Counted from the stretch's first letter, positions 39,405 to 56,312 are shown. The stretch: DNA of 56,488 nt from Nanobdellota archaeon (GCA_018819065.1 JAHJQL010000062.1:1-56488); one strand, 5' to 3'. Program-made: numbers and translations. Notes: generated from the letters alone by a model not told the origin.

Positions 39405-39405
39405 A

Positions 39406-40404: not shown

Positions 40405-40407
40405 ACT

Positions 40408-41371: not shown

Positions 41372-41419
41372 AAATTTTTGCGAAACTTTTTTATAATCAA
41401 GAACACAAAGTTTTTCTAC

Positions 41420-41527
41420 ATGGGCGAAGCAATTTTAGAATCATTTAAGACTTACTTAGTTGTTGCAGCAATGATTCTCTTGCTACTGTTCATAGTAGTT
41501 TTTGGAATTTTAAGGAGGGGTTTTTGA
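41420..41527 (+). CDS. small single-TM protein (35 aa), hypothetical
   Basis: MGEAILESFKTYLVVAAMILLLLFIVVFGILRRGF*. A TATA-like TTTTTATAAT lies about 28 nt upstream. The stop overlaps the next ATG (TGATG). It is below the ORF-track cut-off. Confidence 0.4.
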   Translation: MGEAILESFKTYLVVAAMILLLLFIVVFGILRRGF

Positions 41528-42372
41528 TGAATAAAAAAGGAATGAGCCAGGCGGTACTGCTTTTTTTTATAATAATACTAGTCTCAGCGGTTGTTATCTT
41601 TATATTTGTAGGTCAACTTCAAGGAGCAGTTCATAAAGGCAACAGAGGTGCGTCTTGCTTGACTTCAATGACTCTAAGAAGCCATACAACATCAGAAGAC
41701 TTACTTGTTAGAACATTTGAGGGAACAAATGAGTTCTGCCCAAAATATCAAGTCACTTTTTATAAAAAATACGCGGAGATAAAATTAAAAGACAAGACTT
41801 TTGACAAGATAAAATATGATGAACTAACAAGTGAGAAAGTAAACGAGATAATTGCTGAAGAAATGAGGTATTGCTGGGCACAGTTTGGAGGTGGAAAACT
41901 AGATGCTTTTTGGCTTCCTGAAACAATCTTTCAAAAATATGTTCCGTTCTTTGGAAAAGCATCAAACGATGCCATTGGTTGCAGAGTTTGCTCTGAAATA
42001 AGTTTAGTTTTAGAAGATGTAAATACTAAAAGTAATTTTACAGGTTTGAGACAATACTTAAAAAAACATGATATAACAAAAAAGATACAAAAAGAAGGTG
42101 AAAAAGGAACATACTACTCATACCTTGCAGAGCACGAGCAAGGATGTGGAGATTATGTTGGTGGAGAAAACTGCTGGGAAGAATTCGCTAAGGATGATGA
42201 AGTAATGATAAACACAAGCTTAAGCATAGATCCAAACGAAGCATATCTTGTTGTTTTTATCAGAAAAAACATAAAACAGAACGAAGGCGTGATGAACACA
42301 TATCTAATATCACAAGATTTGATGGATTGGTATAATGAAGAAGAAACCTGTAAGCCATTGCCGTTCATCTAA
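41527..42372 (+). CDS. class III signal peptide (pilin-like) protein, paralog of 42377..43249
   Basis: MNKKGM-SQAVLLFFIIILVSAVVIFIFV. It shares MR.CW..., C..C and FT... blocks with the next ORF. Confidence 0.7.
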   Translation: MNKKGMSQAVLLFFIIILVSAVVIFIFVGQLQGAVHKGNRGASCLTSMTLRSHTTSEDLLVRTFEGTNEFCPKYQVTFYKKYAEIKLKDKTFDKIKYDELTSEKVNEIIAEEMRYCWAQFGGGKLDAFWLPETIFQKYVPFFGKASNDAIGCRVCSEISLVLEDVNTKSNFTGLRQYLKKHDITKKIQKEGEKGTYYSYLAEHEQGCGDYVGGENCWEEFAKDDEVMINTSLSIDPNEAYLVVFIRKNIKQNEGVMNTYLISQDLMDWYNEEETCKPLPFI

Positions 42373-42376
42373 GAAA

Positions 42377-43249
42377 ATGAGAAAAGGAACGCTGCTTCAA
42401 GAATACAACTTAGGAGTTATTCTTCTAGTAGTCACAATTTTAGTAATAATAATATTCTTCACAGCAACAGCCAAGCAAACAGATAAATCAATAGAAGAAA
42501 GCGAATGCCACAAACAAGTAGTTGCTCATGTCCAAGCATTAAAACTCTCAAACAGTGAGTATGCAACAGAGATTAAATGCCCGATAATATTTGAAACCTT
42601 AAAAGAAAAAAAGGAAAAAGAGATAAAACAAGCGCTTGCAGAGAGGATGAGGAAGTGCTGGTATAACTGGCAGGAAGGAAATGCAAATTTATTCACAGGA
42701 AAAGGGGTTTACTGTCATCCTTGCTATATTCTTAATTTTGAACATGATAACGTTGAAATCAAAGACTTCACAAAGTTCCTCATAGAAACGACCGTGCCCA
42801 ACAAAGATTATAAATACATACAATACTTAACAGGCACAACAAACAATGAAGATTTCAAAGCAGAAAAACTGTCACAAAATCCCAAAATAAGAAGTTCAAC
42901 ATCTGATTTTAACACAAAAACTTCGAAAGTAATCTTGTTTTATTACATCAAAGATTCTGATAAGATAAAAGAATTTTGGGGAACAGCGAAAAGTACTTTT
43001 GAAGGAGCAGCAATAGGCACTGTAGGGGGTGCTGTTCTTGGTGGTGTTGCTGGATCAGTCTTTGGACCAGCAGGTATTGTTGTTGGTGTAAAAATTGGCG
43101 CAACAGTAGGAGCACTCGCAGGAGCATTCATAGCCGGAACATTTGCCGATGATTATCCATTGTGGTTATCCTATGTTTTATTAAGAGAATACAACGAAGA
43201 TAAATTAAAAGAACTAGGCTGTGAAACTGCTCCCGCAAAACAAAATTAA
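42377..43249 (+). CDS. class III signal peptide (pilin-like) protein with C-terminal glycine-zipper segment
   Basis: The internal ATG at 42377 gives MRKGT-LLQEYNLGVILLVVTILVIIIFF. The C-terminal segment is GAAIGTVGGAVLGGVAGSVFGPAGIVVGVKIGATVGALAGAFIAGTF (about 42995-43140). Confidence 0.7.
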   Translation: MRKGTLLQEYNLGVILLVVTILVIIIFFTATAKQTDKSIEESECHKQVVAHVQALKLSNSEYATEIKCPIIFETLKEKKEKEIKQALAERMRKCWYNWQEGNANLFTGKGVYCHPCYILNFEHDNVEIKDFTKFLIETTVPNKDYKYIQYLTGTTNNEDFKAEKLSQNPKIRSSTSDFNTKTSKVILFYYIKDSDKIKEFWGTAKSTFEGAAIGTVGGAVLGGVAGSVFGPAGIVVGVKIGATVGALAGAFIAGTFADDYPLWLSYVLLREYNEDKLKELGCETAPAKQN

Positions 43250-43280
43250 TAAATAGAAGGAAACAAATTTGATTTAAGTT

Positions 43281-43430
43281 ATGACTAAAAAAATGTTTAA
43301 TAAGAAAGGTGAAGAAATTTCAGAATTAATGAAGTGGTTGCTATTTATAGTCATTTTAGTGACGTTAGTACTTATAATTTGGATGACACAAAAAGGTTTA
43401 TCAATTAAAAGTATATTTCCGTTTTTTTAA
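43281..43430 (+). CDS. mini class III signal-only ORF (49 aa)
   Basis: MTKKMFNKKGE-EISELMKWLLFIVILVTLVLIIW... It shares the MFNKKG start with the ORF at 44139 and is below the ORF-track cut-off. Confidence 0.4.
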   Translation: MTKKMFNKKGEEISELMKWLLFIVILVTLVLIIWMTQKGLSIKSIFPFF

Positions 43431-43431
43431 G

Positions 43432-44052
43432 ATGAAAAAAGGACAAATAAATAAGTTGGGAAAAATTTTGTTGGCACTTGCACTTTTAATAATTATAATT
43501 ATTGCCGTAGTTTTAAAACTACCATCTATTGTCAAAGGTATAAAAGAGATGACTGATTCAAACAAGCCAAAAGAGTTATCAACAGATTGTGAAAATGAAG
43601 CCTTAGCATTGCCTGAACAGATAGAAGGCTGTTTTGACTCAGGAAGCTACGATTTAGCAGTTGAAAAAGCGGAAAAATTCCTAAAAGAGAATCCAGATGA
43701 TAAAACAATTGTCGCTGCAAAGATGCACAACTTCATTTCTTGGTCATACATTGAAATGGATACTGCTAAATACGGCGAAAAAATCATGAAGAACGCTAAA
43801 AAAGCAAAAGAGTTATCATATGATTTAAATGAAGAAGGTACAAGTGAATATATACGTGCTTTAGAAGCTATTTTAGAGTATAGTTATAGAGAATTTAAAA
43901 AATTAAAACCAGCACTTAAAGTTAATAAACCAAGAGGAATTTTTAGATCTTACTGGCAAAGTTATAAAGAAATGTATAGAACTCAAGCAACCCCTTATGA
44001 TCAAAAAAATTTAGAAACACAAAAAGATTTGGACAAGTCTTTAAACCCATAA
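43432..44052 (+). CDS. class III signal peptide (pilin-like) protein with helical (TPR-like?) body
   Basis: 206 aa. MKKGQ-INKLGKILLALALLIIIIIAVV. The remainder is predicted helical by eye. Confidence 0.65.
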   Translation: MKKGQINKLGKILLALALLIIIIIAVVLKLPSIVKGIKEMTDSNKPKELSTDCENEALALPEQIEGCFDSGSYDLAVEKAEKFLKENPDDKTIVAAKMHNFISWSYIEMDTAKYGEKIMKNAKKAKELSYDLNEEGTSEYIRALEAILEYSYREFKKLKPALKVNKPRGIFRSYWQSYKEMYRTQATPYDQKNLETQKDLDKSLNP

Positions 44053-44138
44053 AACCTCAGCCATACTTGAAATTTACAAAAAATTTATATAGTAATTACT
44101 CCATTTTTTAATAAGCTTAATATGAGGTGTTAATGAAA

Positions 44139-44396
44139 ATGTTTAATAAAAAAGGTCAAGGAATAAGTATTAACGTGATTATAATTGCAGCAATAGCACT
44201 TCTGGTCCTGGTAATTTTATCAGTTCTTTTGATTAGAAGTGGAGGAAACGTTGTTACAGGAACATCATGTGCAGGTGTAGGTGGAACTTGCAGTTCTTCA
44301 TGCTCAGATTTATCTGAAGGAACAAAGATATACTCCCCACATCCAACCGCGAAATGCACAGATTCCAACGATAAATGTTGCATAATCCTTGGATAA
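44139..44396 (+). CDS. mini-pilin with 6-Cys C-terminal knot (array member 1)
   Basis: GAGGTG Shine-Dalgarno-like element 9 nt upstream. MFNKKGQ-GISINVIIIAAIALLVLVILSVLLI. Head is C-x6-C-x3-C-x17-C-x6-CC. Confidence 0.75.
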   Translation: MFNKKGQGISINVIIIAAIALLVLVILSVLLIRSGGNVVTGTSCAGVGGTCSSSCSDLSEGTKIYSPHPTAKCTDSNDKCCIILG

Positions 44397-44400
44397 AAAA

Positions 44401-44658
44401 ATGATTAAAAACAAAAAAGGAGACATAAGCATCAGCGTCATAATCATGATTGCAATAGGCCTTTTAGTGTTGATAGTGATTGCAATTCTGATATTTAGGT
44501 CTGGTCAAAGCGCATCAAGTGGAACTAGTTGCATATCAAAAGGTGGCGTTTGCAAGCAAACCTGTGAGGTTGGCCACGCCATAGGCACCGCTGGAATGTA
44601 TGGTTGTAACACTGAGACTTGCTGTAGCCCGGTAAAAAGGGATGATTGGGGAACATAA
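44401..44658 (+). CDS. mini-pilin with 6-Cys C-terminal knot (array member 2)
   Basis: MIKNKKGD-ISISVIIMIAIGLLVLIVIAILIF. Head is C-x6-C-x3-C-x13-C-x4-CC. Confidence 0.75.
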   Translation: MIKNKKGDISISVIIMIAIGLLVLIVIAILIFRSGQSASSGTSCISKGGVCKQTCEVGHAIGTAGMYGCNTETCCSPVKRDDWGT

Positions 44659-44915
44659 TGTATAAAAAAGGCGAAATATCAACTTCAACAATGATATACA
44701 TAGGTTTAGGACTCCTAGTATTAATACTAGGGGCTATAATGATTTCAAAAGCTTATAGAAACAGTCAACAAGTAAACAGCAACTGTGGTCTCGTAGATAA
44801 AAACTCTAAATGTCAACCACAGAAATGTCCAGAAGATCAATCAGCAATAGGATTTTGCCCTGACAAATCATCATCACCAGAAGAAAAATATTATTGTTGT
44901 AAAACTAGTGGTTGA
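44658..44915 (+). CDS. mini-pilin with 6-Cys C-terminal knot (array member 3)
   Basis: MYKKGE-ISTSTMIYIGLGLLVLILGAIMI. Head is C-x8-C-x4-C-x9-C-x12-CC. The start overlaps the previous stop (TAATG). Confidence 0.75.
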   Translation: MYKKGEISTSTMIYIGLGLLVLILGAIMISKAYRNSQQVNSNCGLVDKNSKCQPQKCPEDQSAIGFCPDKSSSPEEKYYCCKTSG

Positions 44916-44916
44916 A

Positions 44917-45216
44917 ATGGTTAAAACTAATAAAAAAGGACTAACAATGGACATGTTTGGAAAAGTTGTGCTTATGGTCATTGTAGTTCTTGTTGGAATA
45001 GCTATAGCATTAAAGATAGGTCCCACAGTATCTAAAGGAGAGGAAACTTTTTCTTGTGGCAACACTGGTAATATGTCTAATGGGACTTGTGTAGAAAACA
45101 AAGCCAAATGCCAAGAATTAGGAGGCTTCTCCAGAGGACTTGACAAGGGTTGTAGCAGTTCAACTAAAACAGACGACCCACAGAAACCTTACTGTTGTGA
45201 AATACCTAAATCATGA
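44917..45216 (+). CDS. mini-pilin with 6-Cys C-terminal knot (array member 4)
   Basis: MVKTNKKGL-TMDMFGKVVLMVIVVLVGIAIAL. Head is C-x10-C-x6-C-x13-C-x13-CC. Confidence 0.7.
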   Translation: MVKTNKKGLTMDMFGKVVLMVIVVLVGIAIALKIGPTVSKGEETFSCGNTGNMSNGTCVENKAKCQELGGFSRGLDKGCSSSTKTDDPQKPYCCEIPKS

Positions 45217-46691
45217 TGAAAAAAGGCGAAATTAGTCTTCTGGTAACACTTACAATCACAGTCATATTTTTAATACTAGTTTTCATCGTGACGTTAAAGT
45301 TAATCGGACCATTGCTTTGGAATGAAAAAAACAGCGTGTCTTACGAGAACTATAAACTATTAACAACAGCAGTAGAAAGTGTGACGAAGTCAAAGATGAA
45401 TACTTCAATGCAAAAAATGGTTCTTCAATTAGAGCCAGGATTTGACATAATAGCATTTGACCCTGGAGAGGGTAAGATAAAAACAGACATACCAAAGTGG
45501 CTGGTTTTTAAAGAAGCATCACGTGATAGACCTGATGAATGTGAAACAAATAAAGGTTGTCTATGCATATATAAAGGTGGATCGGTTATTGAATGCAAAA
45601 GCTTTGAAAAAACTTATTTTTTTAGTGAACTTAATAGTGATATGATTAGTCAAAGTATGGGAGAAGAAAAAAAAACTCACACTCTTAGTTCTTATAAATA
45701 TGAAGGAATCATGTTTTTTGGAGATTTAGAATTAGCATTATTAGCAATAATATCTGTTGATTCAACTCTTTTTGGTGTTCAACCAATGTATGTAGAGAAT
45801 TACAGGGATAAAGGCAATAATTACGTGTTGATTTCTAATCTCAACAACAAGCTCTTAAAAAGATTTAAGATGATTAGTAAATGCCCAACAGATAAGTCTG
45901 ATGGAGGCTGTAATAAATATCAGCATTATGATGAAGTATTTAACTTAACAGATAGTAATGGTAAGATTGATTATTTTGTTTGTAAATTCAATGAGAAGAG
46001 TGAAAAATGTGTGAATAAAAGCATAGAACTATGCGCACCTGGAATGATAGATTGGGAGTGTGCGTGTGGAGATACTGCTTATGAATTTGGAATGTGTATT
46101 AATGAAGGGTATTATGATGCAGATATTAGCAGTGAGTACTGTTTCATAAACAAGTTTGATGAATCGTCTACTTGTAAAACTTATGAAGATGGATCTGATG
46201 CTGAGCAAAATAAGTATGCATGTACATTCAACCGTTGTGGTGTTAAAGATAAGTGTTATTGGAACAATGATGATTGTGAAGCTTGTGAGCAGACTTGTTT
46301 GTGCAAAGACTATGGGGGTAAAGATGGTTGGATTAGATTCATTGATCCATGCGACTGTGACAAAGACAAAAAACCCCTCGACACAGATGACTGTTTAAAT
46401 TGTCAAAACGAAATAAAGAAAGACTGTAAGAACTACCTTTCAGAAAATCAATGCATAAAAAATGGGTGTTTCGTAAGCGTTATATATTCAAACCAACAAA
46501 CCGGATCAACACCGTCTATCAAAGGTTGTATACCTGAATATTCAGGAAATGAATATAAACAGTGTGTCAATTGTTTGGAAAGTTGTGATTGTAAAGATTA
46601 TGTTAACGCAAAAATGAAGATGTTAGATCTTTGTGATTGTGACAAGGATAGACTAATAGGTGAATCTGAAACAGCAGATGGATGTCAGTAA
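45213..46691 (+). CDS. class III signal peptide (pilin-like) protein with Cys-rich C-terminal half
   Basis: 492 aa. MMKKGE-ISLLVTLTITVIFLILVFIV. The C-terminal ~200 aa have many Cys, including two C.CKDY...D.CDCDKD units. Confidence 0.75.
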   Translation: MMKKGEISLLVTLTITVIFLILVFIVTLKLIGPLLWNEKNSVSYENYKLLTTAVESVTKSKMNTSMQKMVLQLEPGFDIIAFDPGEGKIKTDIPKWLVFKEASRDRPDECETNKGCLCIYKGGSVIECKSFEKTYFFSELNSDMISQSMGEEKKTHTLSSYKYEGIMFFGDLELALLAIISVDSTLFGVQPMYVENYRDKGNNYVLISNLNNKLLKRFKMISKCPTDKSDGGCNKYQHYDEVFNLTDSNGKIDYFVCKFNEKSEKCVNKSIELCAPGMIDWECACGDTAYEFGMCINEGYYDADISSEYCFINKFDESSTCKTYEDGSDAEQNKYACTFNRCGVKDKCYWNNDDCEACEQTCLCKDYGGKDGWIRFIDPCDCDKDKKPLDTDDCLNCQNEIKKDCKNYLSENQCIKNGCFVSVIYSNQQTGSTPSIKGCIPEYSGNEYKQCVNCLESCDCKDYVNAKMKMLDLCDCDKDRLIGESETADGCQ

Positions 46692-46747
46692 TTAGTTAAA
46701 TGTTCTTTTCAAAAATTATTTAAACCTTTATATCAACTTTTTTGTTC

Positions 46748-47620
46748 ATGAATAAAAGAGGAGATGAAAAGCTTAGCAAAAAGCTTACTTTCTACGCATT
46801 CATATTTATATTGGTTGCAATAGTTATACTGTCAGTCTTTAGGTTTATAGGAAACACGCTAGACGACACCACTTTTTGGCGTGGATACTATGCCAAGGAT
46901 GCTGGTTTAATGATTAGTGCTGGTGAAACTGGAAGAGGTGTTTTTGAGCTTAGTTATAACACAAAAAAAGCTGAGAAACCACTCGTTTTCAATCTTAAAA
47001 TTAATAACGAAGTTGAAATCTATGATCACGACCCAAATGCAAAGACTAAACAAAGCTCCACATTCAAGTTCATAGGTGATAAAAAAATAAAAATTGAGCC
47101 TGCGGAGATAATATCAACTTTCTTCAACATATATATTGATGATAAAAAAGTCAACGCCAGCAAAGAAGCAATTAAAAAAGATAGTTGCCCATCCATAGAT
47201 ACAAAAGCAACCCTGATTAGCAATATAAAAATATATGTTGATTCAGATGACAAATTTAAAAATTTTGAAAACTTGTTAATTAATGATTTAAAAATAAGTG
47301 GATTTAAGATTGCAAACAGTAAATATGAGAGTGATATAGATTTAGCATTAATTTTGGCTAATAGTTCAACAAACACTCTATCATTTTTTTATGAACACAC
47401 TCCCAGGAAGAGCGAGAAGATAAGTTGCATCATAAAAAATAAACTGGTTGAAAAATACCCTGACAAATATTCTTATTACAAGATTAACAAGATAGATTAT
47501 AACTCGAAGTGGTGGTTTGCACTCTCAAAATCAAATGTCGGGTTGGTGTTTGAAATCAACGAATTGACTGACGACGCGATTTTATTAATTGGAGACTCGG
47601 TGGAGGAATATTATGGATGA
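46748..47620 (+). CDS. N-terminally anchored protein, weak class III-like signal
   Basis: MNKRGD-EKLSKKLTFYAFIFILVAIVILSVF. TATA-like TTATTTAAA about 30 nt upstream. Confidence 0.6.
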   Translation: MNKRGDEKLSKKLTFYAFIFILVAIVILSVFRFIGNTLDDTTFWRGYYAKDAGLMISAGETGRGVFELSYNTKKAEKPLVFNLKINNEVEIYDHDPNAKTKQSSTFKFIGDKKIKIEPAEIISTFFNIYIDDKKVNASKEAIKKDSCPSIDTKATLISNIKIYVDSDDKFKNFENLLINDLKISGFKIANSKYESDIDLALILANSSTNTLSFFYEHTPRKSEKISCIIKNKLVEKYPDKYSYYKINKIDYNSKWWFALSKSNVGLVFEINELTDDAILLIGDSVEEYYG

Positions 47621-48107
47621 AGCTGGTGAAGGCGAGGGTAAGTGGCTGCTTGAGATGATTCCAAAACTAATATTCCTTGGAATAGCAATAACTGTGATAA
47701 TAGTGTTTACCGCACTTTTCATCATGAATAACTTAAGAACTGATGATTTGGAGATTGACGTCTTTTTAAACAAACTAATATATTCTAAAAACACCATATC
47801 ATACTATGATTCTATGACTGGAAGGACTTACCTTGGAATAATCGACCCAAACAAACTAACAGAGAAAAACTTAAACGAATCAATGGAGTATAACGGTACT
47901 ATGTACGCTGCAAAGATAACCCTTGGAAGCCAAGAAGCTTACTATTTAAAATCAAGGTATCTAAACCTTGAAGGACTGGCCAAAGCAAAAATTAAAGGTC
48001 CAGGAGGGGCAGATTACAGGTTTAAAAAATTTGAAGTTGGAGTGATGGATAACAACGTCTTAAGAACAGAGACTATTAAGATTGAAATGATAAAGGCAAG
48101 AACATGA
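47613..48107 (+). CDS. N-terminally anchored small protein, hypothetical
   Basis: GGAGG about 8 nt upstream of the ATG at 47613. MDEAGEGEGKWLLEMIPKLIFLGIAITVIIVFTALFI. There is no [KR]G-Q tip. It overlaps the previous stop. Confidence 0.55.
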   Translation: MDEAGEGEGKWLLEMIPKLIFLGIAITVIIVFTALFIMNNLRTDDLEIDVFLNKLIYSKNTISYYDSMTGRTYLGIIDPNKLTEKNLNESMEYNGTMYAAKITLGSQEAYYLKSRYLNLEGLAKAKIKGPGGADYRFKKFEVGVMDNNVLRTETIKIEMIKART

Positions 48108-48643
48108 TTAAAGGCAAAAAAGGGCAAGAAATGATTGTTGACATATTCTCATATTTATTATTCATAATAATAATTTTAACATTCATAATCTTACTGTTTC
48201 ACCAAGAAAAAGAAACCAGAAAGAACATCGCAACAGGCGTAAGAGCTGATTTTTACGAGACCAGACTCTTAATACTCATGAGACAACCAATCACTGGGAC
48301 TTATCAAACATTTGCGGAGATGATTATTGATTCACCATATAATGATTATAAAAAAGATTTTGTTTCAAAAGAAATAACAAACACTTTTGACAAAGAATGG
48401 GGTGAATGGTGGGACTTTACAGTATACACTCAAAAACCATTAGGAAGAGAACAAAAAAAATGGGATACTGGTTATAGCTTTACTGGACAAGCAGCTGTTA
48501 ATATCTTAAAAAACTTTATCGCCATGGCAGTAGGAAGCAAAATACCACTACCCTTATCTTATCCTGTTGAAATTTCAGTAACTCTTCCAGGTCATAACAA
48601 CGAAAATATAATTGTGAAATTCAGATATTGGATGATTGCATAG
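48104..48643 (+). CDS. class III signal peptide (pilin-like) protein
   Basis: 179 aa. MIKGKKGQ-EMIVDIFSYLLFIIIILTFIILLF. ATGA overlap with the previous gene. Confidence 0.7.
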   Translation: MIKGKKGQEMIVDIFSYLLFIIIILTFIILLFHQEKETRKNIATGVRADFYETRLLILMRQPITGTYQTFAEMIIDSPYNDYKKDFVSKEITNTFDKEWGEWWDFTVYTQKPLGREQKKWDTGYSFTGQAAVNILKNFIAMAVGSKIPLPLSYPVEISVTLPGHNNENIIVKFRYWMIA

Positions 48644-48653
48644 GTATAAAAAA

Positions 48654-51600
48654 ATGAATAAGAAAGGACAAATATTTGTGTTGATGATTTCGATATTCAT
48701 GGGAATAGCATTATTCACCATATTCATAAGTTTAAATAACAAATACTCTGCGGCAAGAGTAGCCAGCACAAGCATAGGCAGTAGTGCATCAGCAGTGATT
48801 AACACTTATCAAAAACAAGAAGCAGCACTGCTCTACCTTGACTTATCAGCACAGCAAGCGCTTCAAAAAAGCCTGTATGACCTTGGAGAAAACGGTGGCT
48901 TTGACCTCGCAGAATGCGGAAGTTCAATATACCCACTATGGAACACCCACGACAAGAACTGCATCCCAGACTATGAAGAAAACCTAAAAAAACTCTTCAA
49001 GCCAGAACTTGAAAACAGAACAAGCAAATTTAATGATGTACAATTTGCAAAAGACTACGAATTCACTGTAAATCCCTCTAACGGACAAGTCGAAATAATG
49101 GGGTTGACTAGTGAGAAGATAACACTCGCGGTTGCTAAAGACTCCAAAGTAAAGCAAGTAACTTCTTCACAAACAACTGGACAACTACAAACAACATACA
49201 AACTTTATGAGTCAGTAAAAAACAAAGTTAATACTTTTGACTCAACAATCCAAGAAGCTGCAAAGAAATACGATCTCCCACCAACAGTACTCAAAGCACA
49301 AATCGCTGTAGAATCTAGCGGAGATCCGAAAATCATTAATCATCTTGGATGTGCAGGTCTTGGCCAGTTTTGTACAATCAGCGGAACGGCACAACAATAT
49401 TTCGGAACAAATAACGTTGTAGTCATAGAAAAGGAGCCTAAATGTCAAAAAACAGGTAATTTTTACAAATGTGATACAACAATATACTCTAAAGACGATC
49501 GTTTTGTTCCCGCAAAGATGATTGAAGCACAAGCAAAATATCTCAAAGAATTATCTGACAGGTATAAAAAAAAAGGATACACAGATTACTTTGCATTTGG
49601 CCTCGCAGCTTATAACAGAGGAGCCGGAAATATTGATAACGATATAATTAAAACCGGCAAGGATGACCCTTCGTGGGCAGATATTTCTCTTGTTTCCGGA
49701 TTTCCTGTTGAAGCAAAAAATTATGTCCCAAAAATAAATGAATACAACCTTCAATGGGGAGAGGGCGGAAAGGATATAAGTCTTGGATATGGATATATTG
49801 GAGGGTACGATGCAGTGATTGGCACTTTTGAATTCGAGCAAAACTTCAAAGCAACGGAAGGCTACAACTTAACAGTTTATGAAGAGCTTAAAACGTTTGT
49901 CAAAGACGCGCTTAGAGACTGTGATAACGCCGTTGATGATTGCATAGAGATTAAAAGAACAGATTTTAACTCAAAACACAGCGAACAAATTGTTTATATG
50001 AGTGATTGCGAGGAAGGAACTACTAAAATTCTTTATGACTTTGCAGAGAATATAATTGATTGCGGAGACACTACTAGTGATAATTGTAAGTGCAAGGTTA
50101 ATGAGGATTATAGTGCTTCAACAGTTGCTTCGATTCAGGGAAAATATCTTTTCTCTGCAAAATTTCACGAGTTCAAGTTTGGTGGAGGTACAAATCTTGA
50201 TCAAAAACCAATACATTGGGTGAACGACCTTAACAACACCTTTAACAAATCTTTTGAAGATGAGATGAACAGGATAATTGATTCCTTTGAAGAGAATACA
50301 GGGGTTGAAATCGCAATTATAAGCATCCAGTCTACCAGTGATATAGAGAATGAAGGTAAAAGCTTTTTTAATTATTGGGGTGTTGGAAAGAAAGATGAGA
50401 AGAATGGGATACTAATCATCGTATCGACAAATCCAGAAGCGTCAACTATCATACTTGGTGAAGGATTAAACAAAATCATAACAAACGATGTGCTTTCTCA
50501 AATGAAAACAAAATTAGCATCCAGCCTAAGTAACAAAAAGGTTGAGGTTGGAATTACAGAAGTGGTCAACACAATAATTACGAAAGTCAAGACTAAGTAT
50601 GAAGAGGAAGACTTTAAAAAAAAGTCTCCTGAGAGATACGACCTTGAACTTAAAGGAGATAAAGATTTAATTAGTGTGAAAGCAAAGACTTACCACATCA
50701 ACTGGTTGCCTTTGACTAAAAATCAATATGGATACAGCTACTCATTTTTTTATAAGGATACTGGTAAGTTTGACTTTGCAAGCATTAAATTCATAGACAA
50801 ACAAGGGGGAGTGCATGAAATTTCTAATTTTAAAAACCTTTCCCTGCTAAAGAAAAAAGATAATTTTTCATTCATAATGAGCAATGATAATGGAAAAGTA
50901 ATGAATGAGACTAATGAAGAAATAACCCCTCCAAGTGACAACTGCGAACCTGCAAAGAGCATATTTAGGATGTGTCTGAAAACCAATAATAAACTGCCAG
51001 TGATGGAGGATAATAAGTTACAATATAAAGAATCAAAGATAAAATTCGCACTTAACCTGATTGACAAGGTTCCACCAGAAAAAGCAGAGAACTTAGAGTT
51101 TGTGTGGCTATCTGACATACAAAGGGTGTTGATAACTTGGGAAGAGAAAAAGACAGTAGACATGGCTACTTATTATGAAATATTCTACTCAGACAAAGCG
51201 TTCACTACGCCAACCACTAATCTTTGGCTTGCAACAGTCTATAAAAAGGTTAATATAACTGGTAATTCAAGTTACGACCGATTAAGAGAAGGAAAATCAG
51301 GCAATCCACCAGTGCAACCAATCACTCCTAACATACCAACGTCTCCAGTCACACCACCAACAGCTGATGACGAAGATGCAGATAAACTAAGTACAGTGGT
51401 TGATAACTTCGTTGATACTTCACAAAGTGATCCTAACTCGCCAAGCAACCTTCTTAAAATACTTCATAACAACACTTTATACTTTGAAGACCCTCAAACA
51501 GGAAAACCTCATTATAGAAAATATTATTTACTAATTAAAAAAGACTCAATAATCCAAGAAGCTGATAAATCAAAAACAAACCTAGAATACCACTTTGGAA

Positions 51601-52178
51601 TTGTTGGATCAGATAAATATGGAAACAAAATCATTGAAAAGATAGAAATATTAAAAATACCAATCTCAAACTTGTGCGGAGCAGTAGTTGAGTACGCTAA
51701 AGAATATATAGGAACAGGCTACATTCCCAAACGAGAATTTTATAATGGATGGAGTATCTGCAAAGCAAGTGACGCGAATAAAAGATTATGTAGGACTCAA
51801 TGCGGATCTTTTGTCACAAATGCTTTTAGATACGCACCAGATACGGGATTAACAGACTCAGAGTTACCAAAAGGTGATGGAAGTAAAAAATGTGCTGGAC
51901 CAAATGTAAAGTACCGTTTTTCAAATTCTGAAGAGCTACAACCAGGAGACATATTCTCTGTGATTGGAGGCGAAGGCCACACAGGAATATATATTGGTGT
52001 GGGAACTTTAAGCGATAAAGCACAAAATAAAAACTGTTTCTTAAAATTCACTCCTGACAACAATGGTGAACAAGTCTTCATACATTCTATAGAGCCTGTT
52101 TGTTATAATACTTTAGAACAACTAGAAACAATGGGATACAAAATTAATCGCTATTGTAGAGTTAATGCTTGCGCTTGA
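48654..52178 (+). CDS. pilin-like-signal multidomain cell-wall hydrolase: lytic transglycosylase (SLT) + TPM domain + FN3-like + NlpC/P60 peptidase
   Basis: MNKKGQ-IFVLMISIFMGIALFTIFISL. SLT motifs AVESSGDP, GLGQF and AAYNRGAGN. TPM motifs GVEIAIISIQS...NGILIIVS...IILGEGL. Pro-rich linker. NlpC/P60 motifs QCGSFVTNAF...GHTGIYIG...FIHS. Confidence 0.85.
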   Translation: MNKKGQIFVLMISIFMGIALFTIFISLNNKYSAARVASTSIGSSASAVINTYQKQEAALLYLDLSAQQALQKSLYDLGENGGFDLAECGSSIYPLWNTHDKNCIPDYEENLKKLFKPELENRTSKFNDVQFAKDYEFTVNPSNGQVEIMGLTSEKITLAVAKDSKVKQVTSSQTTGQLQTTYKLYESVKNKVNTFDSTIQEAAKKYDLPPTVLKAQIAVESSGDPKIINHLGCAGLGQFCTISGTAQQYFGTNNVVVIEKEPKCQKTGNFYKCDTTIYSKDDRFVPAKMIEAQAKYLKELSDRYKKKGYTDYFAFGLAAYNRGAGNIDNDIIKTGKDDPSWADISLVSGFPVEAKNYVPKINEYNLQWGEGGKDISLGYGYIGGYDAVIGTFEFEQNFKATEGYNLTVYEELKTFVKDALRDCDNAVDDCIEIKRTDFNSKHSEQIVYMSDCEEGTTKILYDFAENIIDCGDTTSDNCKCKVNEDYSASTVASIQGKYLFSAKFHEFKFGGGTNLDQKPIHWVNDLNNTFNKSFEDEMNRIIDSFEENTGVEIAIISIQSTSDIENEGKSFFNYWGVGKKDEKNGILIIVSTNPEASTIILGEGLNKIITNDVLSQMKTKLASSLSNKKVEVGITEVVNTIITKVKTKYEEEDFKKKSPERYDLELKGDKDLISVKAKTYHINWLPLTKNQYGYSYSFFYKDTGKFDFASIKFIDKQGGVHEISNFKNLSLLKKKDNFSFIMSNDNGKVMNETNEEITPPSDNCEPAKSIFRMCLKTNNKLPVMEDNKLQYKESKIKFALNLIDKVPPEKAENLEFVWLSDIQRVLITWEEKKTVDMATYYEIFYSDKAFTTPTTNLWLATVYKKVNITGNSSYDRLREGKSGNPPVQPITPNIPTSPVTPPTADDEDADKLSTVVDNFVDTSQSDPNSPSNLLKILHNNTLYFEDPQTGKPHYRKYYLLIKKDSIIQEADKSKTNLEYHFGIVGSDKYGNKIIEKIEILKIPISNLCGAVVEYAKEYIGTGYIPKREFYNGWSICKASDANKRLCRTQCGSFVTNAFRYAPDTGLTDSELPKGDGSKKCAGPNVKYRFSNSEELQPGDIFSVIGGEGHTGIYIGVGTLSDKAQNKNCFLKFTPDNNGEQVFIHSIEPVCYNTLEQLETMGYKINRYCRVNACA
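49236..49680 (+). other. SLT-type lytic transglycosylase domain (approximate bounds)
   Basis: LKAQIAVESSGDPKII (Glu codon 49311-49313), AGLGQF and GLAAYNRGAGNID. Confidence 0.75.
50240..50620 (+). other. TPM-domain (approximate bounds)
   Basis: FEDEMNRIIDSFEENTGVEIAIISIQSTSDIENEGKSFFNYWGVGKKDEKNGILIIVSTNPEASTIILGEGLNKIITND. Confidence 0.65.
51690..52160 (+). other. NlpC/P60 cysteine peptidase domain (approximate bounds)
   Basis: AVVEYAKEYIGTGY..., catalytic-type Cys in QCGSFV (51801-51803), LQPGDIF, His in GHTGIYIG (51978-51980), then FIHS. Confidence 0.75.
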
Positions 52179-52235: not shown

Positions 52236-53339
52236 ATGATTACCATACCTTTAGCTGATATTAAATCTAAAATTAAGGAACAAAAAGGACTTTCTGATGA
52301 GGATATTAAGAAGAGAATAAAAGCTAAGCTTGAACAACTATCAGGGCTTATTTCTGAAGAGGGGGCAGCTCACATAATCGCTAATGAGCTTGGTGTAAAG
52401 CTCATTCCAAGTGGTGAAAAGATAAGTGTAAAAAACATCCTTGCAGGCATGAGAAACGTTGAAGTAACTGGCAAAGTTACTAGAAAGTTCGAGGTAAGAG
52501 AATTTTCTAAAGGAGAGAGAACAGGAAAGGTTGCTAACTTAATGGTTTCTGACGAGACTGGTTTTATAAGAGTAGTTTTTTGGAATGACCAGACAAAGAA
52601 GTTTGACGAGATAAAAGAAGGCGACATCGTAAAGATTCAGAACGGATATGTAAGAGAGAATAATGGTCGAAAAGAGATTCACTTAAATGACCAGGCAGGA
52701 ATAACAATTAATCCAGAGGGTGTTGTTGTCAAGGATGTAAAAGAATCAGTCCAGCGAAAGAAGCTTTCAGAGTTAAAAGAGGGAGATGACAACGTAGAGG
52801 TTATTGCAACAATAGTTCAAGTGTTTGACTTAAGATTCTTCGAAATTGATTCTGAAACTGGTAGAAGGGTCATAGAGAAAGAGGGAAAGTTTTACCTTGG
52901 AGAAAAAGAAGTTACGAATCCTACGTATGGCTACGTGCTAAACATTTTTTTAGATGATGGAACTGAGAATATTAGGACTGTTCTTTGGAAGAACCAGATA
53001 CAAAACCTTCTTGGACTAAGCAACGAGGAAATACTAAAATTTAAGAGTCAACCTGCAAACTTTGAACCTTTAAAGACTGAACTTTTAGGGATGATTGTCA
53101 AAGTTGTTGGAAGAACAAACTTAAACCAAGCTTTTGACAGGCTAGAATTGGTTGCAAACCTCATTTATAGAGACGTTGACCCTGAAGAAGAGATAAAAAA
53201 TCTAAAGAAAGAGTCTAAGCCAGAGCCAAAAATCCAAAAGAAAGAAGAAGCACCAGATAAAGATGATGAAAAAGAAAGTAATACTTCAGAGGATGATGGG
53301 TTTCTTTCAATAGAAGACTTGGAAGACATAGACAGATAA
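52236..53339 (+). CDS. rpa: replication protein A-like ssDNA-binding protein (multiple OB folds, acidic tail)
   Basis: 367 aa. N-terminal helical domain, then OB-fold strings NVEVTGKVTRKFEVREFSK..GKVANLMVSDETGFIRVVFWNDQ and VEVIATIVQVFD. Acidic C-terminus ...SEDDGFLSIEDLEDIDR. Confidence 0.8.
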   Translation: MITIPLADIKSKIKEQKGLSDEDIKKRIKAKLEQLSGLISEEGAAHIIANELGVKLIPSGEKISVKNILAGMRNVEVTGKVTRKFEVREFSKGERTGKVANLMVSDETGFIRVVFWNDQTKKFDEIKEGDIVKIQNGYVRENNGRKEIHLNDQAGITINPEGVVVKDVKESVQRKKLSELKEGDDNVEVIATIVQVFDLRFFEIDSETGRRVIEKEGKFYLGEKEVTNPTYGYVLNIFLDDGTENIRTVLWKNQIQNLLGLSNEEILKFKSQPANFEPLKTELLGMIVKVVGRTNLNQAFDRLELVANLIYRDVDPEEEIKNLKKESKPEPKIQKKEEAPDKDDEKESNTSEDDGFLSIEDLEDIDR

Positions 53340-53356
53340 ATTCTACAAAACAATCT

Positions 53357-53803
53357 TTATAAAAGGATTATTGCAAGATATACGTTGCACAACACAAGTA
53401 TTAAGTCTATCACTAATTCAAAAAGTCCTCCACTAACAAAAAAACCCTTTATTCTCCTATCAAACCAGAAAATAGAAACACCCCTCTTAGTAAAAGAGTC
53501 CAAAACTAAGTGAAAAAAAGCCCCTCCAAAAAATGCCAACGCATAAACAAATCCAAAAAAGAGATACAAAAGCAAAGAAAAAAAGACTGTTGGATACAAT
53601 GAATGAAAAAATCCCCTATGAGAAAAGAGCCAAGAAACAACCTTGACTTTTCGACCAATAATAGACGACGACTCGTCAATGTCAGGAAAAAGAGAGCCAA
53701 GCAAAACTAAAGCGACAAACAAAAAAGTGTACTCTATAAAAAAAATGTTTAAAGCTAACAAAGACAAAAGCAGTCCAAACAACAAGTGAGTCCTCCCAAG
53801 CAT
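53357..53803 (-). CDS. membrane-bound metal-dependent hydrolase, YdjM/DUF457-like
   Basis: 148 aa. MLGRTHLLFG..., FPDIDE, HRGFFHS and HLVLDSFTKRGV. Confidence 0.7.
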   Translation of the reverse strand: MLGRTHLLFGLLLSLLALNIFFIEYTFLFVALVLLGSLFPDIDESSSIIGRKVKVVSWLFSHRGFFHSLYPTVFFSLLLYLFFGFVYALAFFGGAFFHLVLDSFTKRGVSIFWFDRRIKGFFVSGGLFELVIDLILVLCNVYLAIILL

Positions 53804-53856
53804 AAATATTCAAAATATAAAAAAGATTTATAAAATTTGATATTAAATAAGTATTT

Positions 53857-54762
53857 GTGAAGACATTACTCATAATAAACCCAAAAGCAGGAATACAAAA
53901 AAAGAAGCTAGGTGAATTAAAGGAAAAACTATTTTTAGAAGAAGAAAATCAGTTAGAACGGGAAATAAAAACTTTTTTTGAAAAACACAAATTACACCTC
54001 GATATAAAAAGAACAAAAAAAGCAGGCGACGCAACAAGAATAGCGAAGACATCAAAAGATTACGATGCAATAATAGCAGCCGGAGGCGACGGCACTGTAA
54101 ATGAAGTGATAAACGGGCTTGAAAACTATGAAACAAAAATAGGCATAATCCCCCTTGGCTCTGAAAACGTGATGGCAAAAGAGCTAAAAATACCCTTAAA
54201 AGTCAAACGCGCCTGTGAAATCATCATAAAAGGAAAAACAAAAGACGTAGATGTTGGATTAGCAAACAAGAAGAAGTTCTTATTCGTATCAGGAATAGGC
54301 TTTGATGCAAATGCGATCACAAATGTGCAGCCAAAAATAAAACAAATACTAGGAAAACACTCTTACGCAGTAGCCGCTCTAAAGACACTCTTTGAACATA
54401 ACCCTGAAGAACTAATAATCACAATAAACAAAAAAGAAGTTGTAAAAGGATATTTTGTCATAATAAGCAACACGAAGAGATATGGTGGAAAGCTAATGCT
54501 GACACCAGATGCTGAATTAGATGATGGATTCTTAGATTTATGCGTTTTCAAAAATAAAGATATCTGGAGCATGATAAAATACTTGCTAAGCGCTCGAGCA
54601 GGACAGATAAAAAAGATAAAAGACATAGAACATTATAAGATAAAAACAGCACACATAAAATCAAAGAAAAAAGTGTTGTTTCACACAGATGCAGAGATAG
54701 GAGGCACAACACCTGTAAATATAAAAGTTCTCCCTCGACAAATAAAACTAATAGTTCCATAA
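53857..54762 (+). CDS. diacylglycerol-kinase-family lipid kinase (YegS/BmrU-like)
   Basis: 301 aa with a GTG start. LIINPKAG, IIAAGGDGTVNEVINGL and IGIIPLGSENVMAKEL. Confidence 0.85.
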   Translation: MKTLLIINPKAGIQKKKLGELKEKLFLEEENQLEREIKTFFEKHKLHLDIKRTKKAGDATRIAKTSKDYDAIIAAGGDGTVNEVINGLENYETKIGIIPLGSENVMAKELKIPLKVKRACEIIIKGKTKDVDVGLANKKKFLFVSGIGFDANAITNVQPKIKQILGKHSYAVAALKTLFEHNPEELIITINKKEVVKGYFVIISNTKRYGGKLMLTPDAELDDGFLDLCVFKNKDIWSMIKYLLSARAGQIKKIKDIEHYKIKTAHIKSKKKVLFHTDAEIGGTTPVNIKVLPRQIKLIVP

Positions 54763-54907
54763 CACTGGACACTGGACAACTTTGCGCAGAGTATATAAAC
54801 AACCAAAAAATAACACTATTGTTGCAAAACTGCAACGCCCCGACTCTTAGCTCAAAAAAAAGCTAGGGGTTGAAATAAAAAGCGAAAAGCAATCGGAGGC
54901 GATTGAA

Positions 54908-55195
54908 ATGGAAAAAATAGGAAAAAAAGTTAGTTCTGGGAATAACACCCCATACAAAAAGTTTAGAGCTGGCGCAATAGTCGCGACAGTCTGGGAAAAC
55001 GAAAACACCAACAAAGAAGGCCAAAAAATAGCCTATAAAACTGTTTCTTTTGAAAGAAGCTACAAAGACAAGAATGATAATTGGCAGACAACCAACAGCT
55101 TAAGAACAAACGACTTACCAAAAGCAATACTAGTTCTTACAAAAGCATTTGAGCTCTTGTCGTTGTCAGACAACGGTTCAAGCGAGGAAGACTAA
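54908..55195 (+). CDS. small conserved-looking protein with acidic tail; possible PC4/YdbC-like ssDNA-binding fold (weak)
   Basis: 95 aa. GGAGG Shine-Dalgarno-like element 7 nt upstream. ...KFRAGAIVATVWENE..GQKIAYKTVSFERSYKDKNDNWQTTNSLRTNDLPKAILVLTKAFELL...SSEED. It lies between the RPA and radA genes. Confidence 0.6.
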   Translation: MEKIGKKVSSGNNTPYKKFRAGAIVATVWENENTNKEGQKIAYKTVSFERSYKDKNDNWQTTNSLRTNDLPKAILVLTKAFELLSLSDNGSSEED

Positions 55196-55304
55196 ACCCC
55201 TTCCTCAAAAAAAAGTTTTTCGACAACAAACGAAGAAAACTCGAAAAGAACAGCCAAATCTTTATTAATAATAAGATAATAAACAAAAGAAAGGTGGTAT
55301 TATA

Positions 55305-56312
55305 ATGAAAGAAGAAAAAATAAAAGAAGAAAAAACTCAAGAAGTCCAAATTACAAAAAAAGAACCAAAACAAACTCAAAAAAAAGAAAAAATAATAGAA
55401 GACCTGCCAGGCGTTGGCGCAGCAACCGCTGAGAAGCTCAGAGCCGTAGGCTATGACAACTTCTTAAAAATAGCAGTCTCATCTCCTGGAGAACTCATAG
55501 AAATTGCAGGTGTTGGCGAACCAGTTGCAAGAAAGATGATTCAAGCTGCAAGAGACAGCCTTGAAATGGGCTTTCAAACAGGCGCAGACCTTCTAAAAAA
55601 GAGAGAAACACTAATCAGGATAACTACTGGAAGCAAGAACTTTGATGATATAATGGGTGGAGGGTTTGAAACGTGTGCCATTACTGAATGCTTTGGAGCG
55701 TATGGAAGCTCAAAGACACAAATAGCGCATCAATTAGCAGTCAACTGCCAAGCAAAAGACCCTGACGCAGTAGCAGTTTACATAGACACAGAAAACACAT
55801 TCAGGCCTGAAAGGATAAAGCAAATGGCAGAAGGACAAAAATTAAACCCTGAAAAAATACTTAAAAACGTAAAAGTTGCACGAGCCTTCAACTCTGACCA
55901 CCAAATGCTGCTCGCAGAAAAAGTAGAGAGCTTAATAAAGCAAGGTATGAAAGTGCAAGTCTTGATTGTTGATTCTTTAACAGCTCATTTCAGAGCAGAA
56001 TTCATTGGAAGAGGAACACTCGCCGAACGTCAACAAAAACTAAATAAGCACATGCACACACTCGCAAAGCTTGCAGACATGTATAATTTATGTGTATACG
56101 TCACTAACCAAGTAATGTCAAAACCAGACCAGTTCTTTGGTGACCCAACAGAAGCAATTGGCGGACACGTAGTTGCCCACAACAGCACGTTTAGGATTTA
56201 TCTGAGGCGTGGAAAGAAAGGAACAAGAGTTGCAAAGCTTGTAGACGCGCCAAATCTTCCAGATGCAGAAGCGATATTTAACATCAACGATTCTGGACTA
56301 AGCGACTTATAA
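55305..56312 (+). CDS. radA: DNA repair and recombination protein RadA
   Basis: 335 aa. K/E-rich ~30-aa N-terminal tip, HhH (DLPGVGAATAEKLRAVGY), Walker A (GAYGSSKTQ), Walker B (VLIVDSL), then ...GGHVVAHNSTFRIYLRRGK. Confidence 0.95.
   Translation: MKEEKIKEEKTQEVQITKKEPKQTQKKEKIIEDLPGVGAATAEKLRAVGYDNFLKIAVSSPGELIEIAGVGEPVARKMIQAARDSLEMGFQTGADLLKKRETLIRITTGSKNFDDIMGGGFETCAITECFGAYGSSKTQIAHQLAVNCQAKDPDAVAVYIDTENTFRPERIKQMAEGQKLNPEKILKNVKVARAFNSDHQMLLAEKVESLIKQGMKVQVLIVDSLTAHFRAEFIGRGTLAERQQKLNKHMHTLAKLADMYNLCVYVTNQVMSKPDQFFGDPTEAIGGHVVAHNSTFRIYLRRGKKGTRVAKLVDAPNLPDAEAIFNINDSGLSDL

Follow-up and report, generated by a model that had tools for sequence, protein, structure and literature searches.

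A probable modular pilin bearing murein hydrolase domains is encoded at the end of a pilin-like operon in an archaeon

Large extracellular murein lytic transglycosylases of Woesearchaeota and Pacearchaeota have been described and read as enzymes that attack bacterial walls (PMC8204110, 2021; Vigneron et al. 2022, PMC9723730; PMC10936187), and PMC8204110 and PMC9723730 refer to earlier reports of such proteins by Rinke 2013 and Castelle 2015. In 2025, killing of bacteria by archaeal peptidoglycan hydrolases was demonstrated experimentally for Woldo and Danwoldo of Halogranum (PMC12352652). Modular type IV pilins are established in bacteria, PilB and PilC of Streptococcus sanguinis being examples (Raynaud et al. 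2021, PMC8179133). Phage tails and secretion systems likewise place a glycan cutter, a peptide cutter or both on a delivery device that touches the target cell.

Herein, we analysed a gene in a stretch of 56,488 nucleotides (GCA_018819065.1, JAHJQL010000062.1:1-56488), referred to as the window. Its product shares the protein family, the SLT domain and the anti-murein interpretation with the transglycosylases of Woesearchaeota and Pacearchaeota, but a pilin-type signal, a pilin operon, a carrier module and extra peptidase domains, all features of the protein here, are absent from the papers on those enzymes; the words 'pili' and 'pilin' do not occur in PMC8204110 or PMC9723730. The preprint on archaeal type IV filaments (TFF) leaves transglycosylases, peptidoglycan and hydrolases unmentioned. 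With Woldo and Danwoldo the protein has in common that an archaeal enzyme of modular build, with catalytic and accessory domains, faces bacterial murein. Those proteins are soluble, Sec/Tat-secreted and haloarchaeal, with M23 or glucosaminidase plus PG-binding domains, and only Sec and Tat signals, with no mention of class-III signals, are reported for them (PMC12352652), whereas the present protein has a pilin-type N-terminus, comes from the DPANN and joins SLT to NlpC/P60. As in the bacterial modular pilins, a pilin-type signal and helix bear a bulky module, the gene is part of a pilin operon, and varied modules occur on one carrier. It differs from them in being archaeal, in its K-G|Q-type signal, in matching neither IPR012902 nor a Pfam pilin model, and in bearing murein hydrolases rather than adhesins on a carrier that is a candidate pilin fold. 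SLT of T7 gp16, baseplate NlpC/P60 of diffocin and phi812, and Tse1/Tae1 of T6SS are among the profile and Foldseek matches, but this homology is confined to the catalytic domains, and genes for a contractile or secretion apparatus were not found in the window.

The open reading frame runs uninterrupted on the plus strand for 1174 amino acids plus stop. Either TTG at 48636 or ATG at 48654 could serve as start, and the frame ends at 52178 without an internal stop. The ATG gives MNKKGQ..., agrees with how homologues begin (for example P0003, MNKKGQV), and lies 10 nt from the stop codon of the upstream gene. Upon re-reading of the sequence, the order of domains and the positions of motifs and catalytic codons were as the original prediction had placed them. 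The features are as follows.

48654-52178, plus strand: whole gene, comprising pilin-type N-terminus, carrier, SLT, Cys-rich middle domain, TPM, beta-rich/FN3-like region, Pro-rich linker and NlpC/P60-like domain
48654-48668, plus strand: class-III-type signal M-N-K-K-G, predicted to be cut after Gly5 with Gln6 as the new N-terminus
48669-48734, plus strand: hydrophobic helix QIFVLMISIFMGIALFTIFISL, aa 6-27
48654-49163, plus strand: conserved N-terminal carrier module of about 170 aa
49245-49664, plus strand: SLT domain (family 1 lytic transglycosylase, GH23), aa 198-337
49311-49313, plus strand: catalytic residue Glu220, codon GAA, within the E-S motif
49815-50168, plus strand: Cys-rich 'middle' domain, aa 388-505
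50220-50579, plus strand: TPM domain (PF04536), aa 523-642
51069-51293, plus strand: FN3-like stretch (VPPEKAENLEFVWLSD...YYEIFYSD)
51306-51359, plus strand: Pro-rich linker PPVQPITPNIPTSPVTPP, read from the sequence
51666-52175, plus strand: divergent NlpC/P60-superfamily (C40-like) cysteine peptidase/amidase domain, aa 1005-1174
51801-51803, plus strand: predicted catalytic Cys1050 (TGC) in QCGSFV
51978-51980, plus strand: predicted catalytic His1109 (CAC) in GHTGIYIG
52083-52085, plus strand: predicted third triad residue His1144 (CAT) in FIHS

Read directly from the sequence, the N-terminus places Lys at -2, Gly at -1 and Gln at +1 ahead of a stretch of 21 hydrophobic residues. This layout, MNKKG|QIFVLMISIFMGIALFTIFISL, comprises the basic N-region, the [KR]-[GA] motif and the hydrophobic stretch of a class III signal. 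K4, G5 and Q6 are invariant in family alignment A1, and [KR][GAS] with a hydrophobic stretch was found in 109 of 126 family representatives (position -1: G in 54, A in 38, S in 17). The pilin-like N-terminus that had been proposed is of class-III type, and its K-K-G-Q motif is held in common with about 17 neighbouring genes. No A24 prepilin peptidase gene was found within the window; the ORF at 11244-12149 encodes a presenilin-type SPP (A22), not an A24 enzyme. The carrier module carries YLD..GG..CG..WN..C motifs, combines helices with a three-stranded sheet, and is common to members with different enzymes. A structure model (pTM 0.44) placed a helix at aa 3-32, interrupted by a low-confidence loop at aa 30-39; helices spanning 43-79 and 107-123 come next and, at 136-161, three strands. 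The carrier module matched neither the Pfam pilin models nor the pilins of the PDB.

The SLT assignment was confirmed. PF01464 was matched at aa 198-336 with an E-value of 7.7e-12 and 45.2 bits (cut-off 21.3), and by all 16 homologues scanned (best 1.1e-20). The profile retrieved MltC from the PDB at 2.9e-16, together with MltF, Slt70, MltE and T7 gp16. The alignment brought the ES, GLMQ and AYNGG motifs into register; the corresponding motifs here are AVESSGDP (E220-S221), GLGQF (49356-49370) and AAYNRGAGN (49605-49631). Glu220, predicted as catalytic, fell on the E-S motif in the alignment to MltC, MltF and Slt70, and E220, S221, Q238, Y320 and N321 are invariant in family alignments A1 and A3. 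The SLT region was modelled with a pLDDT of 83-96, and Foldseek returned MltE, Slt, MltC and MltF with probability 1.00 and a target-normalised TM of up to 0.67; the domain is thus modelled with a goose-lysozyme-like alpha-helical fold.

The C-terminal domain had been predicted to be NlpC/P60. Scanned alone, it scored 16.3 bits against PF00877, below the cut-off of 23, and was for this reason classed as a divergent domain within the NlpC/P60 superfamily rather than as a member of PF00877. Profile, model and fold search upheld the superfamily assignment. Among 23 homologues, the domain matched NLPC_P60 in 13 and CHAP in 8 (E<=0.1), and the 15 PDB sequences retrieved by the family profile at E<=1 were nearly all NlpC/P60-type peptidoglycan hydrolases or cysteine peptidases. 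The AF2 model (pLDDT 90.2, pTM 0.88) predicts the papain-like alpha+beta fold of NlpC/P60 hydrolases; ranks 1-28 of the Foldseek search were without exception murein hydrolases of the NlpC/P60 fold, among which the single-domain chains gave a target-normalised TM of 0.71-0.76. The proposed catalytic residues are conserved in the homologues, Cys1050 in 22 of 23 sequences and His1109 and His1144 in all 23. Cys1050 aligned with the Cys of 7cfl and CwlO, and His1109 with the His of 6biq, 7cfl and CwlO. Owing to an insertion of about 22 residues ahead of it, His1144 is a predicted counterpart of the canonical third His.

Several further parts lie between the two enzymes. The Cys-rich middle domain has invariant Cys423, 430, 452, 470, 478 and 480 in the family alignments and gave no match in the Pfam scan. 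The TPM domain lies well above the curated Pfam cut-off (E 1.4e-20; 74 bits against 22.1), as expected from the original prediction, and directly matched the TPM proteins 7tbr, 5anp and 2kw7 of the PDB. Among 150 representatives, a TPM insertion in the carrier family, and with it the combination SLT+TPM+NlpC/P60, was seen in this protein and P0002 only. We know of no role for TPM in wall lysis. For the FN3-like stretch, with ENLEFVWLSD at 51087, the assignment is suggested by a 13-sequence profile (A4) that matched FN3-containing PDB chains only, and weakly (4.5e-4 to about 1; best 5jip, E 4.5e-4); Pfam gave no match at E<=10.

The gene ends a run of about 17 pilin-like genes, identified by the K-K-G-Q motif and a hydrophobic helix in the neighbouring ORFs. 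The features of the cluster are as follows.

22095-25379, plus strand: first ORF of the cluster with a class-III signal (N-terminal sequence MFEKRGQ...), 1094 aa
25464-38869: two giant Sec-signal, adhesin-like surface proteins, after the preceding ORF
38925-48643, plus strand: about 15 upstream ORFs running in the same direction, the majority with [KR][KR]G[QEDLM] and a hydrophobic helix at the N-terminus
44133-45216, plus strand: four tandem small Cys-rich pilin-like paralogues inside this run

Ten loci of other assemblies (L001-L007 and L088-L090; L002 comes from the Woesearchaeota 'bin.69' MAG) have the gene as the final or penultimate member of the same pilin-like operon. These operons hold 10-17 pilin-like genes, one of them small and a candidate major pilin, with an N-terminus that hardly varies between the loci. 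An independent ENA contig (L007) has the identical order of pilin operon, this gene, RPA-like gene, DAG kinase and RadA, and similar orders were found in six MAGs of Woesearchaeota or Nanoarchaeota. A pilus ATPase or platform gene was found neither in the window nor in the 10-kb flanks of the related loci.

The window carries archaeal markers, namely RadA, RPA and archaeal ribosomal proteins, and its RadA is 76-79% identical to that of Woese- and Nanoarchaeota MAGs with the same gene; judged by these sequences, the source is a Woesearchaeales (DPANN) archaeon. The family comprises 272 representatives at E<=1e-10, among them P0003 and P0004, annotated as lytic transglycosylase/SLT and coming from Woesearchaeota and Nanoarchaeota. 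The family is large, old and spread across the DPANN, and the gene lies in an operon whose synteny is conserved. Elsewhere in the family the same carrier is joined to a glucosaminidase-like domain, to a classic NlpC/P60 domain or to Amidase_2+M23+SLT. Every enzyme type joined to the carrier is a murein hydrolase, with up to three different lytic domains per member.

SLT enzymes cleave the MurNAc-GlcNAc bonds of murein non-hydrolytically, yielding 1,6-anhydroMurNAc products, and NlpC/P60 enzymes cut murein stem peptides; archaea make no murein. Given that the organism is archaeal, bacterial murein is the likeliest substrate, in line with the bacterial-wall target originally proposed. We consider it probable that the gene encodes a 'modular pilin' of a Woesearchaeales archaeon, displayed on the surface and equipped with more than one murein-hydrolysing enzyme. 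A prepilin peptidase would cut the signal at K-K-G|Q, and the hydrophobic helix and the carrier of about 170 aa would anchor the protein, either in the membrane or in a fibre that resembles a type IV pilus and is made of the pilin-like products of the same operon, most likely at the fibre tip. The ectodomain would attack the bacterial sacculus, with SLT cutting MurNAc-GlcNAc via Glu220 and the NlpC/P60-like domain cutting stem peptides or the amide link via Cys1050, His1109 and His1144, while the Cys-rich, TPM, beta/FN3-like and Pro-rich parts may be spacers or binding modules. The outcome may be a local breach in the wall of a bacterial partner or prey, for attachment or feeding. To our knowledge, no host is known for this lineage.

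The same enzymes may act without a filament, the class-III N-terminus being a membrane anchor or sorting signal and the hydrolase working only where cell and bacterium touch. The 'bindosome' of Sulfolobus, in which sugar-binding proteins have class-III signals, offers a parallel for such an anchor; the carrier has no detected pilin fold or pilin family, an ectodomain of about 1150 aa would be awkward inside a fibre, and the assembly ATPase was not found nearby. We regard this arrangement as less likely than the modular pilin, given the conserved terminal position of the gene in an operon of pilin-like genes with a candidate major pilin, and given that the tips of bacterial pili accommodate bulky modular pilins (PMC8179133).

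Scavenging concerns the ecological role and is compatible with either anchoring mode: the surface enzyme would digest murein debris or dead bacteria and so provide a fermentative archaeon of reduced genome with amino sugars and peptides, and no living wall would be breached. Recycling of cellular compounds by DPANN has been proposed from genomes (PMC9723730), and a glycan cutter paired with a peptide cutter should solubilise sacculi efficiently. We judge this role improbable, however, as a pilin/adhesion operon with giant adhesin-like proteins better fits contact-dependent action, and catabolic genes for the 1,6-anhydro-muropeptides that SLT yields were not seen in the window.

A dedicated SLT is common in bacterial type IV pilus and secretion loci, and the gene here lies in a pilus-like operon, so that the enzyme might open the organism's own (pseudo)murein for the passage of the pilus. 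This appears very improbable: the organism is archaeal and murein synthesis genes were not found in the window; SLT chemistry requires the C6-OH of MurNAc, which the talosaminuronic acid of pseudomurein does not have; and the enzyme is itself pilin-anchored in a family whose members have up to three lytic domains, excessive for gap-making.

Least credible of all is that the gene arose by misassembly, or by contamination with bacterial sequence that was joined to archaeal DNA. SLT, NlpC/P60 and TPM domains are typically bacterial, but in tetranucleotide composition the gene correlates with the remainder of the window at r = 0.96, a value near the top among the segments, and shows no break. GC content is uniform along the window, the gap between the upstream stop and the start of the gene is 10 nt, and the gene order recurs on the independent contig and similarly in the six MAGs, so that this reading is refuted as far as sequence data go. 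Recent horizontal acquisition is likewise not supported, given the age and breadth of the family and its conserved syntenic operon.

The novelty first suggested has to be narrowed. Wall-cutting transglycosylases of these archaea are already published (PMC8204110, PMC9723730, PMC10936187), as is killing by archaeal enzymes (PMC12352652), and the proteins themselves are thus known; the fusion to a class-III signal seems unreported. For the link to the pilus operon, the K-K-G|Q signal with its carrier, and the recombination of enzymes on this carrier, we found no earlier report. What appears new here is that wall-cutting archaeal proteins are tied to a pilus operon. Tentatively, Woesearchaeales and related DPANN archaea could possess a conserved type-IV-pilus-like apparatus with a carrier pilin as its terminal subunit, bearing interchangeable 'warheads' (SLT, glucosaminidase, NlpC/P60, M23, amidase), and the operon could be a filament-borne, cross-domain wall-breaching device. 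If so, the exchange of effectors on an unchanging carrier would recall polymorphic toxin systems, and a large part of this archaeal radiation would be contact-dependent parasites or predators of bacteria.

The hydrolase gene is an unbroken ORF on the + strand that runs from 48636 (TTG) or 48654 (ATG) to 52178. Since MNKKGQIF... agrees with the N-termini of homologues and the stop codon of the preceding gene lies 10 nt upstream, ATG 48654 is likely the true start. The motifs and codons named in the original prediction were all found where it had placed them, and the main features of the ORF are as follows.

Features located on the hydrolase ORF
49311-49313, + strand: codon GAA of Glu220
51087, + strand: start of the FN3-like stretch
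51306-51359, + strand: Pro-rich linker
51801-51803, + strand: codon TGC of Cys1050
51978-51980, + strand: codon CAC of His1109
52083-52085, + strand: His1144 codon of the FIHS motif

Promoter and terminator scans near the 3' end of the gene gave nothing exceeding chance.

The protein had been proposed to combine an SLT lytic transglycosylase with TPM, FN3-like, and NlpC/P60 parts. Pfam assigned SLT to aa 198-336 (45.2 bits; cut-off, 21.3) and TPM to aa 523-642 (74 bits; cut-off, 22.1), and the score of the latter bears out the TPM identity. Queried alone against the PDB with phmmer, the SLT region returned noise only, and a 16-sequence profile was required. The profile of aa 1-510 matched MltC (2.9e-16), then MltF, Slt70, MltE, and phage T7 gp16, and the E-S, G-L-M-Q, and A-Y-N-G-G motifs lined up with those of solved lytic transglycosylases, including the catalytic Glu. 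Residues Glu220, Ser221, Gln238, Tyr320, and Asn321 were invariant across homologues. The SLT region of the AF2 model had a pLDDT of 83-96, and a Foldseek search with it retrieved MltE, Slt, MltC, and MltF. Collectively, this evidence confirms the SLT identity. For the FN3-like stretch, a 13-sequence profile matched FN3 domains only, weakly (best, 4.5e-4), and no Pfam match was obtained. The TPM insertion (50220-50579) lies between the Cys-rich and beta-rich domains and, among the best 150 representatives of the family, was seen in the hydrolase and P0002 only.

The original prediction is at its weakest for the C-terminal domain. NlpC/P60 was absent from the Pfam scan of the whole protein, and the isolated C-terminus scored 16.3 bits against Pfam NlpC/P60, under the cut-off of 23; homologous C-terminal domains were therefore gathered and aligned. 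The C-terminal 174 aa found no match in a word-indexed protein database, where the identical fragment was missed too, so an exhaustive search of representatives was used instead. This yielded 34 homologous C-terminal domains, 23 of which were aligned; the predicted catalytic Cys was present in 22 of the 23, and both His were invariant. The resulting profile matched 15 PDB sequences at E<=1 (best, 1.2e-4). Almost all are hydrolases of the NlpC/P60 type or cysteine peptidases related to these, and the Cys and the first His aligned with theirs. The AF2 model of the domain had a pLDDT of 90.2, and Foldseek ranks 1-28 were without exception NlpC/P60-fold murein hydrolases, including C. difficile autolysins, MepS, CwlO, the T6SS enzyme Tse1, and diffocin and phage baseplate enzymes (target-normalised TM of 0.71-0.76 for single-domain chains). 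An insertion of ~22 residues precedes the predicted third catalytic residue. Given the conserved Cys/His/His, the PDB profile, the AF2 model, and the Foldseek matches, the domain is predicted to be a divergent member of the NlpC/P60 superfamily (hereafter C40-like). The proposed assignment thus agrees with the fold, the profile, and the aligned catalytic Cys and first His, but not with the Pfam score.

The exhaustive search with the hydrolase returned 3558 representatives at E<=1e-3, with 272 at E<=1e-10, and hydrolase domains were mapped onto the best 150 of the 3558, all from within the family. These share a constant N-terminal module of ~170 aa, the carrier module, which comprises the signal, a helix, and YLD..GG..CG..WN..C motifs; [KR][GAS] followed by a hydrophobic stretch was present in 109 of the 126 representatives in which the module is N-terminal. 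The Pfam scan found no family in aa 1-199 or aa 333-522, and no pilin family in 16 homologues. Foldseek matches of the 510-aa model were swamped by SLT and are thus silent on the carrier module. A Cys-rich 'middle' domain at 49815-50168, with six invariant Cys (423, 430, 452, 470, 478, and 480), occurs in most family members; its model confidence was only moderate, and it had no family or structure match.

Among the best 150 representatives, the carrier was joined to SLT, to the C-terminal C40-like domain, or to both, the SLT+C40 pairing being confined to the hydrolase and P0002. Glucosaminidase-like or classic NlpC/P60 sequences occupy the same slot in other members, and all identifiable enzymes on the carrier are murein hydrolases. 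Two distant members in the same operon position were also observed: P0018 (L089 10001-13750) has Amidase_2, Peptidase_M23, and SLT on the carrier, and P0016 (L090 10001-15412) has a classic NlpC/P60-like sequence and the C40-like domain.

Upstream of the hydrolase gene, nearly all ORFs of 38925-48643 (+ strand) start with [KR][KR]G[QEDLM] followed by ~20 hydrophobic residues. The ORF at 22095 starts with the same motif and a hydrophobic stretch, and the single further match in the rest of the window was a spurious minus-strand ORF. The arrangement of pilin-like run and hydrolase was also found in six MAG loci (L001-L006), in the P0002 locus (L007), and in three loci of distant members (L088-L090), with the hydrolase gene in the final or penultimate position. 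The loci contain a small pilin-like gene whose N-terminus, KKGQGISINVIIIAAIALLVLVIL, is almost constant between loci. The small pilin-like ORF had neither a PDB relative nor a Pfam match. Four tandem Cys-rich pilin-like paralogues of 85-99 aa lie at 44133-45216; the first (44133-44396) has an N-terminus of ~35 aa, KKGQGISINVIIIAAIALLVLVILSVLL, that is near-identical in distant Woese- and Nanoarchaeota MAGs, and this paralogue is a candidate for the major pilin of a DPANN-specific filament. Genes for a pilus ATPase, platform, or A24 peptidase were found neither in the 56-kb window nor in the flanks of the compared loci; the membrane protease at 11244-12149 belongs to the presenilin-type signal-peptide peptidases (PF06550) and is not of the A24 prepilin type. 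Between the ORF at 22095, the first with a class-III signal, and the pilin run lie two giant ORFs of 2510 and 1957 aa (25464-38869), with Sec-type signals, CarboxypepD_reg, bacterial TSP3 repeats, and Big_13, and with a lower tetranucleotide correlation to the remaining window (0.82-0.86); they may be adhesins of the same apparatus.

The hydrolase is an archaeal ectoprotein, membrane- or filament-anchored, with intact predicted glycan-cleaving and peptide/amide-cleaving sites, both of kinds that act on bacterial murein, and its gene is co-transcribed with pilin-like genes. A prepilin peptidase would cut the signal after Gly5, the carrier would either enter a type-IV-like fibre, at its tip, or be kept as a pilin-like membrane anchor, and the hydrolase would locally open the sacculus of a bacterial partner. 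Filament delivery is unproven, and the main rival explanation keeps the same enzymology without a filament and has the class-III signal do no more than anchor or sort the protein. Scavenging would fit both ways of anchoring. For an archaeon, a role in remodelling its own wall is very unlikely.

It is also very unlikely that the gene stems from chimerism. Archaeal ribosomal protein genes lie upstream in the window, and an RPA-like OB-fold gene, a YegS-type kinase, and RadA lie downstream of the hydrolase gene. The RadA is 76-79% identical to those of Woesearchaeota/Nanoarchaeota MAGs, and two of its best three relatives have a hydrolase homologue on the same contig (L008, JBDRCD010000009; L010, JACNFY010000025). 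GC was uniform along the window, and the tetranucleotide profile of the hydrolase gene correlated with that of the remaining window at 0.96, so that the proposed continuity check revealed no compositional break at the gene. L007, an independent ENA contig, carries P0002 (1449 aa), the closest homologue with the full architecture, in the order pilin-like operon, hydrolase, OB-fold gene, kinase, and RadA. An RPA-like OB-fold gene was seen after the pilin operon in the distantly related DPANN contigs L007, L088, and L090, and RadA also follows in L007 and L088; this synteny, which in the window concerns the stretch 52236-56312, is unusually stable for such divergent genomes. An assembly chimera is excluded so far as sequence alone permits, given the continuous composition and conserved synteny. 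Recent horizontal transfer was rejected on the same two grounds and because the family is large and diversified.

We know of no Woesearchaeota or Pacearchaeota with a cultured host. The original prediction of an enzyme aimed at bacterial murein was right, but its core idea had already been published: large extracellular murein-like lytic transglycosylases of Woese- and Pacearchaeota have been explicitly read as acting on bacterial walls (PMC8204110, PMC9723730, PMC10936187). The sole support of the published case for attack on bacteria is the presence of the SLT domain. Bacteria-killing archaeal peptidoglycan hydrolases have been demonstrated, in a survey that gives Sec and Tat signals only (PMC12352652), and bacteria are known to have modular pilins (PMC8179133). 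A 2026 preprint on archaeal type-IV-filament machineries mentions neither transglycosylase, peptidoglycan, nor hydrolase. We found no literature report joining Woesearchaeota or Pacearchaeota to both transglycosylase/murein and pilin/pili, and none linking Woesearchaeota with NlpC. The pilin-type carrier is absent from the literature found on these proteins, in agreement with the suggestion that the class-III-signal fusion is new; the carrier itself seems to be new, as do the place of the gene in the operon and the swapping of hydrolase modules. Once the enzyme is placed last in a conserved pilin operon, on a carrier recombined with several murein hydrolases, a loose annotation becomes a concrete, testable apparatus. 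Surveys of archaeal peptidoglycan hydrolases that report only Sec/Tat signals would miss this class-III delivery class, and the hydrolase operon speaks to the question of whether any archaeon depends on bacteria.
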